A DNA stretch of 40,090 bases from Gemmatimonadota bacterium (GCA_017889745.1 JAGGAG010000003.1:1-40090); one strand, 5' to 3'; shown: positions 6,209 through 14,806, numbered from the stretch's first letter. Made by a program: numbers and translations. The notes: generated by a model not told the origin, from the letters alone.

Positions 6209-6679
6209 ATGTGGTATCGCATGGTCATCGCGCTGCTGGCGCTCGTCAACTCCCTCGTGGCGACGTACCTCTACCTGTGGAAGACCGGGCGCGCGGGTAC
6301 CCTGGCCTGCACCGGGAGCGGCGGTTGCGCCATCGCACAGTTCAGCCCCTACGGCTGGTTCCTGGGCGTGGACGTGGCACTCATCGGTGCCGTTGGCTAC
6401 GCCGTGCTGCTTCTGGTAGCACTGGTAAGCATCCAGCCGCGGCACCTGGAAAGCCGGCGCGTGAGCGTGGCGCTACTGGCGCTTATCGCCCCCGCCTTCC
6501 TGTTCACGGTGCGGCTCAAGTACGGTGAATGGGTCGTGCTGAAGGTGTTCTGCCCCTGGTGCTTCATCTCGACCGTGTCGATCACCACCTGCCTCATCCT
6601 CGCCTGGCTCGACTGGCGGCGGACGGCTCGGGTCGCACCAGCCCCGGAGGAATCGGCACGGATGCCGCTCGCGGCATAA
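6209..6679 (+). CDS. Vitamin K epoxide reductase (VKOR) family disulfide-bond formation protein
   Basis: Four TM segments, loop cysteine pair ACTGSGGC followed by S, and active-site FCPWC. Confidence 0.9.
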   Translation: MWYRMVIALLALVNSLVATYLYLWKTGRAGTLACTGSGGCAIAQFSPYGWFLGVDVALIGAVGYAVLLLVALVSIQPRHLESRRVSVALLALIAPAFLFTVRLKYGEWVVLKVFCPWCFISTVSITTCLILAWLDWRRTARVAPAPEESARMPLAA

Positions 6680-6701
6680 CCGCTGGCGGTGGGCCGCAGG
6701 C

Positions 6702-7874
6702 TTAATACGTCGGCACGCCCGGGTCCACGTCCTTGCTCCACCGCAAGATGCCGCCAGTGAGGTTCGACACCTTCCGAAAGCCGGCCGCGCGCAGCTGCGA
6801 CGCCGCGCGCAGGCTGCGCACGCCGCCCTTGCAGTAGACTACGATCTCCCGCGCGCTGTCGAGCGAGCCGAGTGTGGCTGGCAGCGTTGCCAGCGGCACC
6901 AGCCGTGCGCCCGGCAGCCGCGCGATGGCCCATTCCTGCGGTTCGCGCACGTCGATCAGGTCGAAATCGTCGCCGCGCCCGATGCGCGCGGCCAGCTGCT
7001 GCGGTGTCAGCTCGGGAATGGTCGCATCCACGCTGTCGTCCTCGTCGTTCAGCCCGCAGAACTGTTCGTAGTCGATCAGTGACTGTATCTCCCTGGTGCC
7101 GCACGCCGGACAGAGCGGGTCGCGCGCCAGCCTGAGCGTCCGGAACTGCATGCGCAGCGCGTCCACCAGCAGCAGCCGACCGATCAGCGGTTCGCCGATG
7201 CCGGTGAGCAGCTTGATCGCCTCCGTGGCCTGGATCACGCCGATGAGGCCGGGCAGCACGCCCAGTACGCCGCCTTCCGCGCAGCTCGGCACCATTCCCG
7301 GGGGCGGGGGCTCCCGAAAGAGGCAGCGGTAGCAGGGTCCGCTGTCGGTGGCGAGCACCGAGGCCTGTCCCTCGAACCGGAAGATGCTGCCATAGACATT
7401 CGGTTTCCCCAGAAGCACGCAGGCGTCGTTGACCAGATATCGCGTGGGGAAGTTGTCGGTCCCGTCGATGACGAGGTCGTACTCCCGTGCGATGTCGAGA
7501 GCGTTGGCCGAGGTGAACCGCGCCTCGTATGACTGCACCTCCACATGCGGGTTGAGCCCCTCGATCCGGTCACGCGCCGAGGCGAGCTTCGGGCGGCCCA
7601 CGTCGGCGGTGCTGTGGATGACCTGCCGCTGCAGGTTGGTCGCGTCGACCACGTCGAAGTCGACGATGCCGAGCCGGCCCACGCCCGCGGCGGCGAGGTA
7701 CAGGCCAAGCGGCGAGCCCAGGCCGCCTGCCCCCACGATGAGCACGCTCGAGCCCTTGAGCCGGCGCTGCGCGTCGAGGCCGAACTCCGGCAGGATCAGG
7801 TGCCGGCTGTAGCGGAGGATCTCGTCGTTGCCCAGCTCGGGCAGCGTTTCCGCGGCGATCGATGTTGCAGTCAT
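6702..7874 (-). CDS. moeB: MoeB/MoeZ-type adenylyltransferase-sulfurtransferase (ThiF plus C-terminal rhodanese)
   Basis: RYSRHLILPE, GAGGLG, TNLQRQ, DGTDNF, CYRC...CAEGG, CPAC; rhodanese domain DVREPQEW...YCKGGVRS. Confidence 0.95.
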   Translation of the reverse strand: MTATSIAAETLPELGNDEILRYSRHLILPEFGLDAQRRLKGSSVLIVGAGGLGSPLGLYLAAAGVGRLGIVDFDVVDATNLQRQVIHSTADVGRPKLASARDRIEGLNPHVEVQSYEARFTSANALDIAREYDLVIDGTDNFPTRYLVNDACVLLGKPNVYGSIFRFEGQASVLATDSGPCYRCLFREPPPPGMVPSCAEGGVLGVLPGLIGVIQATEAIKLLTGIGEPLIGRLLLVDALRMQFRTLRLARDPLCPACGTREIQSLIDYEQFCGLNDEDDSVDATIPELTPQQLAARIGRGDDFDLIDVREPQEWAIARLPGARLVPLATLPATLGSLDSAREIVVYCKGGVRSLRAASQLRAAGFRKVSNLTGGILRWSKDVDPGVPTY

Positions 7875-7878
7875 GAGT

Positions 7879-8154
7879 TCATCCCCCGGCGATGGCGGGC
7901 ACGATGATCAGCTCGTCACCGTCCCGCACCACGGTGGCGAAGCCACCGGTGAAGCGAATGTCCTCGTCGTTCAGGTAGAACGTCACGAAGGAATACGGGT
8001 TGCCCTGCTCGTCGCGCAGGCGAGGGCCAAGCTGGGGAAAACGACCGGCGACATCGGACACCACGTCGCCCACCGTGGCGCCGCTGGCCTCAATGGTGCG
8101 GGCGCCGTCCGTGAGGCGGGTCAGGACGGCCGGCAGGGACAGCGTGACTGACAT
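7879..8154 (-). CDS. MoaD/ThiS/CysO-family ubiquitin-like sulfur carrier protein
   Basis: 91 aa from ATG 8154, with SD GAGGAGG upstream; C-terminus DGDELIIVPAIAGG ends in di-glycine. Confidence 0.92.
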   Translation of the reverse strand: MSVTLSLPAVLTRLTDGARTIEASGATVGDVVSDVAGRFPQLGPRLRDEQGNPYSFVTFYLNDEDIRFTGGFATVVRDGDELIIVPAIAGG

Positions 8155-8167
8155 GATGGAACCCTCC

Positions 8168-9430
8168 TCAGCGTGAAGATGGCGACGTGCGCGCCACGAG
8201 ATCCGCGACGTCGCGGAGGCGGGGTGCCAGTACCGGTGCCTCGCCCAGCGAACCACTCAAGGCCTCGACCGTCTTGAGGCCGTTACCCGTAATGCACAAC
8301 ACGACCTCGTCGTTCGGGCGGAAGTGACCCTGGCGCGCCAGTTCGAGCGCGCTCGCCAGGGTGACGCCGCCCGCCGTCTCGGTGAAGATGCCCGCCGTCT
8401 CGGCGAGCAGCAGGATGCCCCTGACCAGCTCGGCGTCACTGACGCTCGCGGCCCATCCGCCCGACTGGCGGATCGACTCCGCCGCGTACGCGCCATCAGC
8501 CGGACTGCCGATCGCGATTGACCGGGCGATCGTGTCCGGGATCTCCGGGATGAGCTGCCCGTCGCCGCGCTCAACCAGGCGTACGATCGGCGCGCATCCC
8601 GACGCCTGGGCGCCGTAGAGGCGCGGGAGCTCTCCCTCCACCAGTCCGGCCGACAGGAACTCCCGGAATCCCTTGCCGAGCTTGCTCACCAGCGATCCGC
8701 CCGCCATCGGGGCCACCACCGCGGTGGGAAACCGCCAGCCGAGCTGCTCGGCGATCTCGAAGGCGAAGGTCTTCGATCCCTCACCGTAGTAGGAACGCAG
8801 GTTGACGTTGACGATGCCCCACCCGAAGCGGTCCGCAACCTGGGCGCACAGGCGGTTCACGTCGTCGTACGTTCCCCGGATCCGCACCAGGTTGGGCGCG
8901 TACACTGACGTGCCCACCACCTTGCCGTACTCGAGGTTGTCGGGAATGAAGATCCACGCCGGCAGGCCGGCGCGCGCCGCCTGCGCGGCGACCGCATTGG
9001 CAAGGTTGCCGGTGGAGGCGCAGCCCACGGTGTCGAGGCCAAACGCCGCCGCGGCATTAATGGCGGCGGCAACGACGCGATCCTTGAACGACAGGCTCGG
9101 GTGCGATACGGCATCATTCTTTACCCACACGCGCGCAACGCCGAGAAGCGGTGCCAGCCTCGGCACTTCGACCAGCGGGGTGAAGCCGGTGTCGGGGGAG
9201 TACGGCGGGTCGCCCTCGAGCGGCAGCCACTCGCGGTAGCGCCACAACGACGGCCCCCGCGAGGCGATCTCCTCGCGGGTGGGCAGGCGCCGGGCGGCAT
9301 CGTAGCGCGGCTCGAGGGGTCCCAGGCATTCGGCGCAGATGGCAACGGGCGCCGCATCCGTCTCGGCGCCGCAATTGCGGCAGCGAAGCGGCAGCGCGCG
9401 CACCCGGGGGGAAACAGCAACGGCGGTCAT
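8168..9430 (-). CDS. thrC: Threonine synthase-like PLP enzyme (fold type II); probably O-phosphohomoserine sulfhydrylase-type given context
   Basis: N-terminal CRNC/CAEC, PLP-lysine motif SLSFKDR, CASTGNLA, EGSKT, PMAGGSL, TGNGLKT. The family call is secure; the exact function is inferred. Confidence 0.85.
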   Translation of the reverse strand: MTAVAVSPRVRALPLRCRNCGAETDAAPVAICAECLGPLEPRYDAARRLPTREEIASRGPSLWRYREWLPLEGDPPYSPDTGFTPLVEVPRLAPLLGVARVWVKNDAVSHPSLSFKDRVVAAAINAAAAFGLDTVGCASTGNLANAVAAQAARAGLPAWIFIPDNLEYGKVVGTSVYAPNLVRIRGTYDDVNRLCAQVADRFGWGIVNVNLRSYYGEGSKTFAFEIAEQLGWRFPTAVVAPMAGGSLVSKLGKGFREFLSAGLVEGELPRLYGAQASGCAPIVRLVERGDGQLIPEIPDTIARSIAIGSPADGAYAAESIRQSGGWAASVSDAELVRGILLLAETAGIFTETAGGVTLASALELARQGHFRPNDEVVLCITGNGLKTVEALSGSLGEAPVLAPRLRDVADLVARTSPSSR

Positions 9431-9463
9431 GCCGGTATCCTTGTCGCCCGACTGGCGGCGACG

Positions 9464-9496
9464 AAAAAAAGCGCCCGCGGCAACGAGGCGCGGACG
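9464..9496 (-). terminator. Intrinsic terminator in the thrC-like leader (riboswitch expression platform)
   Basis: Minus strand reads CGTCCGCG-cctcgttgc-CGCGGGCG-C-TTTTTTT: an 8-bp stem (one G-U pair) plus a U7 tract, between the aptamer and the start codon. Confidence 0.75.
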
Positions 9497-9500
9497 TCTC

Positions 9501-9552
9501 GCTTTTTAGCATTTGTTTAACGTGGCTGCAATACGCGGCAAATGACCACGAA
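9501..9552 (-). ncRNA. SAM-II (SAM-alpha) riboswitch aptamer
   Basis: Minus strand reads TCGTGGTCATTTGCCGCGTATTGCAGCCACGTTAAACAAATGCTAAAAAGC(G). P1 is CGTGGT/GCCACG, L1 contains AUUU, and GUAUUGCA can form the pseudoknot with UGCUAAAAA. This matches the SAM-II consensus by eye. Confidence 0.85.
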
Positions 9553-9568
9553 TCAGTTGTCGTAATGA

Positions 9569-9597
9569 GAGATACGTGGAACCGGTGTGGCTGTCAA
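9569..9597 (-). promoter_or_regulatory. Putative sigma70 promoter for riboswitch-thrC operon
   Basis: TTGACA (9597-9592), a 17-nt spacer, then TATCTC (9574-9569), about 17 nt upstream of the aptamer. Confidence 0.55.
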
Positions 9598-9614
9598 GCT
9601 GGGATGCGGCAGCC

Positions 9615-10730
9615 CTATAGCAACTTCACGATCCATTCTCCCACCACGTAGCCGATCCCGGCCACGCCGAGTCCTACGAGGAACATGTCCATCCCGCTAC
9701 GGACCACGCCGCGCCCGGTAAAGAAGCTCCTCGCCGCGCCGACCGCGAAGTGGCTCAGCATCGCGAGCGCGAACGACGTCCAGATGACCAGCGGTCCGCG
9801 GCCGAAGAAGAACGGCGCCACGGGGATGAACGCACCCAATGCCGTGGCGGTACCGGTGACCCAGGCCTCCCGCCTCGGAGTGCTCGTGGCCTCGCCGATT
9901 CCGAGTTCCTCGCGCACCTTCTCGGCCAGCGCGCGCTCCGGGTCCTTCATCACTTCGGCGGCCAGCGCGTCGGCCTGGGCCGCGGGGATGCCCTTGGCCT
10001 GGTAGATGAGGCTCAATTCCTCGCCCTCGAGTTCGGGCATGAGCTTGATCTCGTCGCGCTCCATGGCGATCTCGTGCTCGAAGACCTCCCGCTCGCTCTT
10101 CGCGGCGAGGTAGCCCGACGACCCCATCGAGAGCGCATCAGCCACCATACCGGCCACGCCGGCCACCAGCACCGCATGGCTCCCCAGGTTGGCGCCCTGC
10201 GCGCCGATCATGCCGGCCACCAGGCCGAAGTTGGCGGTGAGTCCGTCGTTGAAGCCGTACACCACGTTCCGGAGGAACCCGCCGGCACCCGTCTTGTGCC
10301 ACGGCTCGGCGGCGCCCCCGCCGATGGCCGCGAGCCGTTCCGCGTGTTCCTTGGACTCGCGCGCCAGCTTGAGCGCCGTCGGCCCCGCCGCGCCCTCGGG
10401 CGCCTCGCGATAGAGCGAGAGGTAGCTCTTCACCTCTCGGCCCTCTTCCTCCAGCAGCAGCGGCAGCACCACGCCGGGGCCGATGCGCCGCGCCACCCAC
10501 GCACGGATCCGTGCGTCCCGGGAAGGTGGCGGCACTTTCACGGTGTGCCCCTGCTCGGTGAGCAGCGTCTGCCACGCTTCGACGTGCCGGTCCTCGACCT
10601 CCGCCAACTGTCCGTAAATCTTCGAGCGGCCGGGATCACGCTCGGCCTGTGCCAACTCGCGGTACAGAAACGCCGCGTCGGCCTCGTCGGCGAGGTGGTG
10701 CAGCCAGTCGGCGGGAGGAGCCTGAGTCAT
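9615..10730 (-). CDS. VIT1/CCC1 iron transporter with N-terminal rubrerythrin/ferritin-like domain
   Basis: N-terminal EADAAFLY...EVEDRH...ESKEH di-iron-like motifs; VIT1 motifs LRNVVYGFNDGL and ALSMGSSGYLAAKSE. Confidence 0.9.
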   Translation of the reverse strand: MTQAPPADWLHHLADEADAAFLYRELAQAERDPGRSKIYGQLAEVEDRHVEAWQTLLTEQGHTVKVPPPSRDARIRAWVARRIGPGVVLPLLLEEEGREVKSYLSLYREAPEGAAGPTALKLARESKEHAERLAAIGGGAAEPWHKTGAGGFLRNVVYGFNDGLTANFGLVAGMIGAQGANLGSHAVLVAGVAGMVADALSMGSSGYLAAKSEREVFEHEIAMERDEIKLMPELEGEELSLIYQAKGIPAAQADALAAEVMKDPERALAEKVREELGIGEATSTPRREAWVTGTATALGAFIPVAPFFFGRGPLVIWTSFALAMLSHFAVGAARSFFTGRGVVRSGMDMFLVGLGVAGIGYVVGEWIVKLL

Positions 10731-13087: not shown

Positions 13088-14806
13088 TCAGGCGGTTAAC
13101 GGCCGCACCTTCCGGCGCTCCAGATCGGGATGGACGCGCCGGGCCAGGTCGATGAACATCGGGATGTCGAGGCTCTGCGGGCCGTCACTCATTGCCTGCT
13201 TCGGGTTGGGATGTACCTCCACTATGAGTCCCGCTGCTCCCGCCGCGAGCGAGGCCTCGGCGAGCGGCGTCACCAGGCTGGCCACGCCCGCCGCATGACT
13301 CGGGTCCACCACCACCGGCAGGTGTGACCGCTCGCGAACCAGCACCACCGCGTTGAGGTCGAGCGTGTGACGGGTGGCGCGCTCGAAGGTGCGGATGCCC
13401 CGCTCGCACAGCACCACGTTGGGGTTGCCCTCCGCCAGCACGTACTCCGCCGCCATCAGCCATTCCTCGATTGTGGCCCCTGCGCCGCGCTTGAGCAGCA
13501 CTGGCACGCCGCTCCTGGCCGCGGCCCGGAGGAGGGAGAAGTTCTGCATGTTCCTGGCACCGATCTGCAGCATGTCGGCGAAGTGCGCGACCAGCGGCAC
13601 CTCCTCCCAGCTCAGCACCTCCGTGACGATCGGCAGGCCGGTGCGCTCGCGCGCCTCGGCGAGATACCGCAGTCCCTTCACCCCCAGCCCCTGGAAGTCA
13701 TAGGGCGAGGTGCGCGGCTTGAATGCGCCGCCCCGCAGCATGTCGCCGCCCGCGCTTGCCACCGCGTCCGCTGTCTCCAGGATCATCTCGCGGCTCTCGA
13801 CCGAGCACGGTCCGGCGATCAGCACCGGGCTGGCGCCACCGAACTCCAGGTGGCGCACCTTGACGATCGAGCCCTGCGGGGCGCGCCGCCGGTCGATGAG
13901 CGGGATGTCCGGCTTCTTCACGTGGTGCGCGGGCGTCGGATGGAAGATCTGGAAGCTGGGTACGCCCTCCGTCCAGGCCTCGTAGCTGCCCAGAATGATC
14001 AGTTGCGCCGCCAGTGCCTCGACTTCCTCCAGCGCCTCGGCGACGCGCGGCTCCGTGGCCGCACCTTCCACGTCGACGTAGAACCGGTAGGTCCACGGCG
14101 CCGACGGCTCGGGCCGCGACTGCAGTGCCGTGAGGTTGACGCCCCGCGCGCTGAAGGCGAGCAGCGTGTGCGCCAGCATCCCGGGGCGGTGATCGAGCGA
14201 CACGATGAGCGAGGTCTTGAACGGGCCCGAGCCGGCGGGAGCCGCTGGCGCGCCCTGGCGGCTGAAGATCAGGAAGCGGGTCTGGTTGGTGGGATCATCC
14301 TCGATCCGTTCCGCCAGAGGCACCAGGCCATGCGCCGCGGCAGCCGGCAGTGCCGCGATCGCGGCCTCGGTCGGGTCGCCATGTGCCGCCACCATCTCGG
14401 CGCTTCCAGCGGTATCCCACGCGCTGACCAGCTCGGCATTGGGCAGGTGCTTCGAGAGCCAGCGCCGGCACTGACCCAGCGCCACCGGGTGCGAGTACAC
14501 CCGCCTGATATCCTCCACCCGTGCGCCCGGCACCGCCATGATCGTGTGGTGAACGGGCAGCAGCGTCTCGTGCGTCAGGGCCAGCGTACCGTCGCCGAAC
14601 GCCTCGTGCAGCAGGTCGTAGGTGGCGGTGACCGAGCCGATCAGGGAGTTCTCGATCGGGAGGCAGCCAGCATCGGCCCGTCCCTCACGGACCGCCGCCA
14701 CCGCGTCCGCCACCTCGCGGCAGGGGATGGCTTCGAGCTCGGGCCACCGGCGTCGTGCCGCCGCTTCACTGAAGGCGCCGTGGGTGCCCTGGATGGCTAC
14801 GCGCAT
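13088..14806 (-). CDS. pheA-aroF: Fusion: prephenate dehydratase-ACT (PheA) plus type I-beta DAHP synthase
   Basis: N-half: VAIQGTHGAFSE, PIENS, SHPVALGQC, NQTRF, and ACT with HRPGML...LQSRP. C-half: IAGPCSVES, GGAFKPRTSPYDFQG, IGARNMQN, LCERGIR, DPSH, SDGPQSL. Confidence 0.93.
   Translation of the reverse strand: MRVAIQGTHGAFSEAAARRRWPELEAIPCREVADAVAAVREGRADAGCLPIENSLIGSVTATYDLLHEAFGDGTLALTHETLLPVHHTIMAVPGARVEDIRRVYSHPVALGQCRRWLSKHLPNAELVSAWDTAGSAEMVAAHGDPTEAAIAALPAAAAHGLVPLAERIEDDPTNQTRFLIFSRQGAPAAPAGSGPFKTSLIVSLDHRPGMLAHTLLAFSARGVNLTALQSRPEPSAPWTYRFYVDVEGAATEPRVAEALEEVEALAAQLIILGSYEAWTEGVPSFQIFHPTPAHHVKKPDIPLIDRRRAPQGSIVKVRHLEFGGASPVLIAGPCSVESREMILETADAVASAGGDMLRGGAFKPRTSPYDFQGLGVKGLRYLAEARERTGLPIVTEVLSWEEVPLVAHFADMLQIGARNMQNFSLLRAAARSGVPVLLKRGAGATIEEWLMAAEYVLAEGNPNVVLCERGIRTFERATRHTLDLNAVVLVRERSHLPVVVDPSHAAGVASLVTPLAEASLAAGAAGLIVEVHPNPKQAMSDGPQSLDIPMFIDLARRVHPDLERRKVRPLTA

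Follow-up and report, generated by a model that had tools for sequence, protein, structure and literature searches.

We analysed a 40,090-nucleotide stretch of DNA from a Gemmatimonadota bacterium (GCA_017889745.1 JAGGAG010000003.1:1-40090; hereafter, the window), which carries an operon of three genes. These encode a homologue of threonine synthase (ThrC) that depends on pyridoxal phosphate (PLP), a small sulfur carrier of the ubiquitin fold, and an E1 enzyme of the MoeZ type (Table 1). Our comparisons make it very probable that the operon encodes a MetM/MetO/MoeZ system under repression by S-adenosylmethionine (SAM), in which a protein thiocarboxylate would supply the sulfur of homocysteine. 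An earlier reading of the window (the original prediction) had proposed such a route to homocysteine or methionine, and support for it now comes from the orthology of the enzyme, from the carrier and the E1, and from the SAM control. Relatives of the operon were sampled as the best 80 related loci, of which 76 bear Gemmatimonad- titles, one is named 'bacterium HR33', and three belong to other phyla. A complete MetO-like open reading frame (ORF) lies beside the enzyme in 73 of them and the riboswitch described below is found in 69; judged by this conservation, the three-gene arrangement is not a product of chance.

A pathway of this kind is already in print. Appendix 4 of the GapMind 2026 preprint, citing Hasebe et al. 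2024, describes how Streptomyces albulus converts O-phosphohomoserine to homocysteine by a thiocarboxylate pathway, the steps of which are listed there (and in Table 2 of the published version) as MetO, Mec, MoeZ, and MetM. In the same appendix, Mec is assigned to the maturation of the MetO terminus, and MetM is said by GapMind to be 'often misannotated' as threonine synthase. A passage of PMC12172450 places a SAM riboswitch upstream of S. albulus metM and gives the identity of Microcystis ThrC to MetM as 51.6%, whilst one sentence of a Bacillus preprint restates the same pathway. The Streptomyces MetM/MetO route, which the original prediction had cited, can be found in these parts of the literature (GapMind 2026; PMC12172450).

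The ThrC-like enzyme and its branch

The enzyme encoded by the first gene matches Pfam PALP (211 bits) and the NCBIfam model TIGR00260 (thrC), on which it scores 231.3 bits against a cut-off of 167.1, and has a zinc-ribbon-like motif of four cysteines at its N-terminus. Because the TIGR00260 cut-off is passed, databases name enzymes of this type threonine synthase: all of the close homologues that carry a name are labelled in this way, and the best solved relatives are also threonine synthases (2zsj, 6cgq, 1uim, and 2d1f). However, the same genome has a thrC with a higher score on this model (268 bits, compared with 231), which is found on contig C141 together with (ACT-)hom and thrB. The original prediction had suggested a search for such a second thrC, and the hom and thrB context that is absent around the window enzyme belongs to this paralogue. 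The window enzyme is 31% identical to the C141 protein, and 35% identical to a third ThrC-like paralogue on contig C55 (C55:3325-4473; L003:1480-2628). The latter, a protein of 383 aa, scores 492 bits on PRK08197 'threonine synthase' and only 143 on TIGR00260, and shares a long branch with a homologue from another genome, G004.

We scanned DNA with a degenerate pattern for a motif that the actinobacterial homologues conserve, and found at least 120 stretches. From the matches listed, 22 Streptomycetaceae loci (20 Streptomyces, one Kitasatospora, and one Actinacidiphila) were examined as 4-kb stretches with 2-kb flanks. All 22 encode a homologue that is 46-49% identical to the window enzyme over about 390-420 residues, and behind it, in every case, lies a MetO-like ORF that is 33-41% identical to the window carrier. 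A SAM-I riboswitch (RF00162; 66.9-83.8 bits) was located directly 5' of the homologue in each of the 20 loci scanned. The protein from Streptomyces sp. HUAS TT11 and the window enzyme are reciprocal best hits, with a score of 315 bits in the window genome, compared with 160 and 149 for the other two ThrC-like genes.

We also made a tree of 87 rows by quick maximum likelihood (LG+G4), with the Shimodaira-Hasegawa-like approximate likelihood ratio test (SH-aLRT) as its only measure of support. A branch with an SH-aLRT value of 98 parts 34 window-side rows from nine other TIGR00260 matches of six genomes, where the labels follow how the rows were fetched rather than verified gene context and 44 unlabelled cluster representatives are uncounted. 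The window-side rows are from Gemmatimonadota, Actinomycetota (including Streptomyces), Acidobacteriota, Thermodesulfobacteriota, and Chloroflexota. The window enzyme is therefore separate from the other TIGR00260 paralogues in the kind of phylogeny that the original prediction had recommended, with Streptomyces proxies on its own side of the branch. Its suspicion that 'thrC' is probably a misannotation agrees with this branch, with the reciprocal best hit, and with the low identity to the genome's own ThrC.

The PLP-lysine motif, SFKDR, is common to the window enzyme and ThrC, and other conserved stretches are changed. ThrC N-S-x-N-P-x-R-x-E-G-Q-K-T corresponds to N-V-N-L-R-S-Y-Y-G-E-G-S-K-T in the window enzyme, and P-V-G-N-A-G-N to P-M-A-G-G-S-L, and the motif by which we recognised ThrC is not found in it. 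In a HMMER alignment to Thermus thermophilus ThrC (1uim), R160 is replaced by Y215, N157 by R212, and N188 by G244; we take R160 and N188 of the T. thermophilus enzyme to be residues that bind the phosphate of the substrate. Tyr215 is kept in 95% of the window-side clade, and Arg212 in 93%. As read from the alignment, these changes fit a remodelled active site, without proving an activity. We rejected cysteate synthase as a candidate, since the enzyme scores 65 bits on TIGR03844, whose cut-off is 325. Two close relatives (L059:4001-5261 and L095:4001-5243) match the window enzyme in two separate pieces, which suggests a frameshift or a break of metM in those assemblies.

The SAM-II riboswitch and the genes that follow it

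The original prediction had placed the operon under a SAM riboswitch, and this proved to be the case. The Rfam family RF00521 (SAM-II) matches the leader at 40.8 bits, against a gathering score of 36, over the full model (1-79), and is the sole Rfam family that reaches its gathering score in the whole 40 kb. The match ends 56 nt before the metM ATG and therefore lies just outside the interval (6702..9430) to which the original prediction had been drawn. A covariance model of the lineage, R1, was built from 12 aptamers (those of the window and 11 relatives) and scores the window aptamer at 86.4 bits. Thirty-nine alignment columns are invariant across these 12 sequences and the conserved core is kept in all of them; the P1 helix gives no covariation signal, because it never varies. 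With the lineage model, a single match was obtained in the window and in each of 69 related loci out of the 80, and every one shares the strand of the operon. The match precedes all of the operon genes in each locus but L082, which has an aminotransferase gene 5' of the aptamer. Several of the 11 loci that have no match are cut off at their upstream edge, and two are from other phyla. A weak match of 27.8 bits, not reported by Rfam's own model at the gathering score, was seen directly 5' of a ThrC-like gene in a metagenome-assembled genome (MAG) from Blastocatellia (Acidobacteriota; L096:3832-3904).

A hairpin with an 8-bp, G+C-rich stem (9496-9472; -16.6 kcal/mol, by script) overlaps the unstructured 3' tail of the Rfam match and is followed by seven U residues at 9470-9464. 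Under a strict criterion, by which a terminator-like element consists of a hairpin no weaker than -10 kcal/mol and, behind it, six or more T in eight, 45 of the 70 aptamers of the window and the related loci have such an element behind them. This makes transcription attenuation the likely mode by which the operon is controlled, and the aptamer is predicted to bind SAM and to render the operon SAM-responsive.

A second SAM-II-like element was found on contig C78 (C78:9832-9905; locus L334:1501-1573), directly 5' of metF-metH, where it scores 51.5 bits on the lineage model and 32.8 bits on the Rfam model, below the gathering score of 36. The lineage model gave no SAM-II-like element in the loci around metX, three genes of the cystathionine gamma-synthase (CGS) family, and the two other ThrC paralogues. 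With SAM-II elements before metM-metO-moeZ and before metF-metH, the predicted SAM regulon thus comprises the synthesis of homocysteine and its methylation. Given SAM-I in Streptomycetaceae and SAM-II here, two unrelated classes of SAM riboswitch control one gene pair in two phyla, which provides independent regulatory evidence that ties the clade to methionine. A literature search that joined the SAM-II riboswitch with Gemmatimonad* found no paper.

Carrier, activating enzyme, and competing explanations

The carrier matches Pfam ThiS (45.6 bits), and its C-terminus, ...PAIAGG, directly precedes the TGA stop codon. Its best solved relative is Mycobacterium tuberculosis CysO (3dwg_C, E 2e-22), followed by 4n6e_B. 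Seventy of the 73 related carriers end in GG. In the Streptomycetaceae, five of the 22 carriers end Gly-Gly-Cys and one ends Gly-Gly-Ala-Gly-Ala; from these extended tails, and from the maturing role given to Mec in print, we infer that Mec removes the extra residues. In the window carrier, Gly-Gly is already the encoded end, so that its maturation would need no Mec or other JAMM protease. In two MAGs, from Syntrophobacterales (L077:1894-7089) and Geothermocultor (L089:2408-6311), the ThrC-like gene is clustered with genes for a JAMM protein, a CysM-like enzyme, a MetO-like carrier, and E1. In the first of these, the frame of the carrier extends through a ThiF domain, so that carrier and E1 are fused in one protein of 368 aa.

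The original prediction was correct that the operon lacks a JAMM gene, but the step that it regarded as missing is no gap where the maturing of a Gly-Gly tail is concerned. Its expectation of a JAMM gene elsewhere in the genome was not borne out: no Mec-type JAMM was found in the window genome, which is 77% complete, and the sole JAB-family match is a RadC-like ORF with 21.9 bits, below the cut-off. Three close relatives (3.5-3.7 Mb) gave only weak JAB-family matches of 21-22 bits, the identity of which is unchecked. In G004, the more distant genome to which locus L045 belongs, a true JAMM gene lies beside a second, intact moeZ (C1:1735343-1736792), about 25 kb from metM, and the operon itself has a 75-aa remnant of moeZ after metO (C1:1711195-1711305).

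The MoeZ protein combines a ThiF domain (Pfam, 275 bits) with a Rhodanese domain (71 bits), and scores below the cut-offs of both NCBIfam models, MoeZ PRK07878 (510 bits; cut-off 647) and MoeB PRK07411 (516 bits). At E<=1e-10, no other ThiF-family match was found in the window genome, nor any besides its counterpart in three close relatives. The clusters moaD-moaE-moaA and thiE-thiS-thiG are located on other contigs (C106:5890-6117 and C11:3775-3960). As MoaD and ThiS are encoded by genes of their own, MetO is a dedicated carrier, the third in this genome. One E1 probably serves all three carriers in this genome, as a single E1 does in actinomycetes, and the activation of sulfur for the molybdenum cofactor (Moco) and thiamine may depend on a gene behind a SAM-repressed terminator. 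Ten of the 80 related loci have a gene for a tandem-rhodanese sulfurtransferase within the operon (e.g., L051:440-1324, L047-L054, L025:6964-7815, and L059:6921-7814). It follows moeZ in two close relatives, L024 retains a 90-aa fragment only, and the best copy in the window genome is on contig C2 (14891-15754; 58% identity).

We propose the following sequence of events. When SAM is plentiful, the SAM-II aptamer would fold, the hairpin and its U7 tract would form, and transcription would stop before metM; when SAM is scarce, transcription would read through into the operon. By the precedent of CysO and MoeZ, the ThiF domain of MoeZ would adenylate the C-terminal glycine of MetO, and the rhodanese domain would pass on a persulfide sulfur to give MetO-COSH. 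The ThrC-like enzyme would use O-phosphohomoserine from the housekeeping homoserine kinase (hom-thrB-thrC on C141) and eliminate phosphate as ThrC does, after which the carrier thiocarboxylate would be added at C-gamma, rather than water at C-beta. As in the published Streptomyces pathway, homocysteine would appear upon release from the carrier, and the products of metF-metH on C78 would methylate it to methionine. Sister operons point to O-phosphohomoserine as the substrate, since a second homoserine kinase gene lies within the operon in 25 of the 80 loci (223 bits on TIGR00191 for the one tested), and hom, or a fusion of aspartate kinase with hom (AK-hom), is found in four.

Several observations weigh against the MetM/MetO/MoeZ assignment. 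The enzyme passes TIGR00260, which is an NCBI equivalog model for threonine synthase. The tree is a quick one without bootstraps, with rows labelled by the way in which they were fetched. The anchors for MetM are Streptomyces species other than S. albulus, the source of the characterised MetM (UniProt A0A059WBP2, according to GapMind), together with second-hand descriptions. A promoter scan found no sigma-70-like site in 6500-9800, where the TTGACA at 9596-9591 lacks a good -10 partner, and the role of the hairpin as a terminator is a prediction. As the sole E1, MoeZ may serve MoaD and ThiS too, and would then not be dedicated to MetO. In a set of 80 loci from other Actinomycetota (Micromonospora, Frankia, Blastococcus, and others), obtained in a search with a Micromonosporaceae protein, only one has a MetO-like ORF within about 3 kb, and 17 of the 18 loci scanned have the homologue by itself after a SAM-I riboswitch; carrier dependence or adjacency is therefore not universal in the clade. 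Lastly, the original prediction had proposed a search for the absence of canonical methionine genes, and these turned out to be present: the genome encodes a homologue of MetX (313 bits), which a contig end truncates, as well as three Cys/Met-PLP enzymes of the CGS family, one of which is above the PRK07049 cut-off and another just below that of PRK07811 (cystathionine gamma-synthase). On paper, the MetM/MetO route is therefore not needed and is not the sole route, and a conventional route may run in parallel.

The alternative that survives best, although we regard it as improbable, is that the enzyme is an O-phosphohomoserine sulfhydrylase acting on free sulfide or another small donor, with the carrier and MoeZ serving mainly Moco and thiamine synthesis, or as an optional donor. 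The scarcity of carriers beside the SAM-I-controlled homologues of other Actinomycetota would suit this explanation, as would the position of MoeZ as the only ThiF-type E1 with the moa and thi clusters elsewhere, and the related loci, 27 of 80, that have no moeZ in the fetched DNA (a MoeZ-like gene is found in the other 53). In contrast, the intergenic gaps of 13 nt (metM-metO) and 4 nt (metO-moeZ; 7878-7875) are of the kind seen in translational coupling, the carrier accompanies the enzyme in all 22 Streptomycetaceae loci as well as in 73 related ones, MetO is dedicated given that MoaD and ThiS have their own genes, and the appendix cited above names the thiocarboxylate as donor (GapMind 2026).

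A system like CysM/CysO, making cysteine (from O-phosphoserine) or another thio-amino acid, is less probable again. MoeZ is the E1 of the CysO system and CysO is the carrier's best solved relative, but the window enzyme scores only 30.8 bits on TIGR01136 (CysK/CysM-type; cut-off 344) and no JAMM gene is above its cut-off. The ThrC-like gene of L077 and L089 has a distinct CysM-like gene beside it, as well as a JAMM gene, so both enzymes coexist, and the SAM control, together with homoserine kinase or hom in sister operons, points to the methionine branch. Least credible is a genuine second threonine synthase with the riboswitch, carrier, and E1 as mere neighbours: its TIGR00260 score (231 bits against 167), the names of its close homologues, and its best solved relatives speak for it, but a better-scoring thrC to which it is only 31% identical lies beside hom and thrB, two classes of SAM riboswitch precede the clade in two phyla, and residues of the ThrC motif are altered across the clade.

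If the operon does encode the MetM/MetO/MoeZ route, reconstructions of methionine pathways for Gemmatimonadota, a common and poorly cultured soil phylum, will be wrong unless the clade is renamed. The assignment also raises the questions of how homocysteine is released without a JAMM hydrolase, and of the genome's only ThiF-type E1 being placed behind a SAM-repressed terminator.

Genomic setting, sister operons, and known systems

The window is contig C223 of a 2.79-Mb genome bin (251 contigs, 77% complete, 68.9% G+C). The nearest public relatives of this genome are Gemmatimonadales MAGs, and the host is a soil or wetland Gemmatimonadales bacterium. The three-gene operon of the original prediction was reproduced in its ORFs, domains, and spacers alike (Table 1).

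Table 1. Features of the metM-metO-moeZ operon in the window, and examples of sister operons with added genes
Feature	Coordinates	Strand	Basis
SAM-II (SAM_alpha, RF00521) riboswitch aptamer	9487..9559	-	Rfam and lineage model
Terminator-like hairpin and U7, probable expression platform	9464..9500	-	Consensus scan, minimum-free-energy fold
AAGGA, Shine-Dalgarno-like, 7 nt ahead of the metM-like ATG	9438..9442	-	Sequence reading
metM-like gene, ThrC-homologous PLP enzyme, 420 aa	8168..9430	-	PALP, TIGR00260, tree, reciprocal best hit
13-nt spacer holding GGAGG (8167-8163)	8155..8167	-	Sequence reading
metO-like gene, 91-aa ubiquitin-fold sulfur carrier with Gly-Gly end	7879..8154	-	Pfam ThiS
moeZ, ThiF-type adenylyltransferase fused to a C-terminal rhodanese domain, 390 aa	6702..7874	-	Pfam, NCBIfam
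Sister operons with added genes, examples	L076:1758-7624, L030:2930-7616, L029:249-5236, L100:1464-7686		

On one side of the operon are leuS and a VKOR gene, the latter convergent with moeZ and just 22 nt away from it in the window; on the other side are a VIT1 gene and a gene for an extracytoplasmic function (ECF) sigma factor. Pfam matches among the window ORFs include leuS, MCP, ECF sigma factors, FabH, and MacAB-TolC. No Moco or thiamine family was matched among the 43 larger ORFs of the 40 kb, in agreement with the original prediction, which had seen no such genes nearby. An ORF of 572 aa (13088-14806, minus strand) unites prephenate dehydratase, an ACT domain, and a DAHP synthase domain; prephenate dehydratase and DAHP synthase catalyse a late and the first step, respectively, of aromatic amino acid synthesis. 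We also checked assembled contigs of sequencing runs, where the RNA-labelled runs contained 5-6% of the sampled words. A 167-nt contig from run X19 is identical over 8116-8282, across the metM-metO junction, in a library flagged 'probably DNA', and so is not evidence of transcription; a 151-nt contig from the RNA run X20 is identical over 9186-9336 and says nothing on transcription, starts, or ends.

In sister lineages, the SAM-II-controlled operon may hold further genes. A PanB homologue lies inside it in 25 of the 80 related loci, and a class I/II aminotransferase gene in 26. The operon PanB homologue passes the panB equivalog model (271 bits). A higher-scoring PanB copy is also present in four of the five genomes checked, and is located beside panC in the two examined; the operon PanB group and the panC-type group are 42-49% identical. 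By these comparisons the operon PanB is a paralogue. Neither the PanB paralogue nor the aminotransferase occurs in any of the four loci with hom or AK-hom, and no PanB homologue was found in the window genome (tblastn, E<=1e-8; bin 77% complete).

It is conceivable, though we would not expect it, that the window operon is the stripped-down core of a larger Gemmatimonadota methionine module. Elsewhere in the phylum, the PanB paralogue would use methylene-tetrahydrofolate to convert pyruvate to 4-hydroxy-2-oxobutanoate, the aminotransferase would turn this into homoserine, and the kinase together with MetM/MetO would lead on to homocysteine; the window genome, without a PanB paralogue, would take O-phosphohomoserine from thrB. 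Alternatively, the PanB and aminotransferase pair could run in reverse and draw one-carbon (C1) units from homoserine, or the aminotransferase could make 3-mercaptopyruvate from cysteine as a sulfur donor. As regards the larger module, a preprint (10.1101/2025.02.17.638773) reports partial rescue of a hom deletion strain, supplied with sarcosine, by overexpressed PanB of Pseudomonas putida, and a dedicated pyruvate hydroxymethyltransferase giving 4-hydroxy-2-oxobutanoate, to be transaminated to homoserine, is therefore chemically plausible. If such a module exists, the carbon skeleton of methionine would have a natural source that does not depend on aspartate; to our knowledge, a supply of this kind is so far known only as the synthetic 'homoserine cycle'. 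The module would matter more than the window operon itself, since it may link pyruvate, C1 units, and homoserine in nature.

Of the systems already described, the window operon is most readily set beside MetM/MetO/MoeZ(/Mec) of S. albulus, with which it shares a ThrC-homologous enzyme, followed by a CysO-like carrier with Gly-Gly, an E1 of the MoeZ type, and a SAM riboswitch in front. It differs from the Streptomyces systems in its phylum, Gemmatimonadota, and in its riboswitch, which is SAM-II rather than SAM-I. Its moeZ is inside the operon, whereas the 4-kb Streptomycetaceae loci (2-kb flanks) have no MoeZ-like match; its carrier ends in Gly-Gly, whereas five of the 22 Streptomycetaceae carriers have Gly-Gly-Cys; and no Mec-type JAMM was found in its genome or in three close relatives.

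With the CysM/CysO/MoeZ/Mec+ system of M. tuberculosis, the operon shares the carrier family (CysO, E 2e-22) and the MoeZ-type E1. In the CysM/CysO route to cysteine, a thiocarboxylate attacks a PLP-bound intermediate derived from a phosphorylated hydroxy-amino acid, and this chemical logic is shared with the system of the window. In contrast to CysM/CysO, the PLP enzyme of the window is ThrC-like, JAMM is absent, and control is by SAM. From ThrC itself the enzyme retains the fold, SFKDR, a score above the TIGR00260 cut-off, and probably the substrate, O-phosphohomoserine; it is set apart by its 31% identity to the thrB-linked ThrC of its own genome, its separate branch, and its changed motifs. 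A ubiquitin-like thiocarboxylate is also said, in work by Krishnamoorthy and Begley, to provide the sulfur of homocysteine in the HcyS/HcyF/HcyD/MetY system of Wolinella succinogenes, which reportedly employs an O-acetylhomoserine sulfhydrylase (MetY) and a dedicated protease. The window system differs from it in having a ThrC-like enzyme and no protease. The pathway is thus one that is already known, to which the window adds a new phylum, another class of SAM riboswitch, and a mis-annotated gene.

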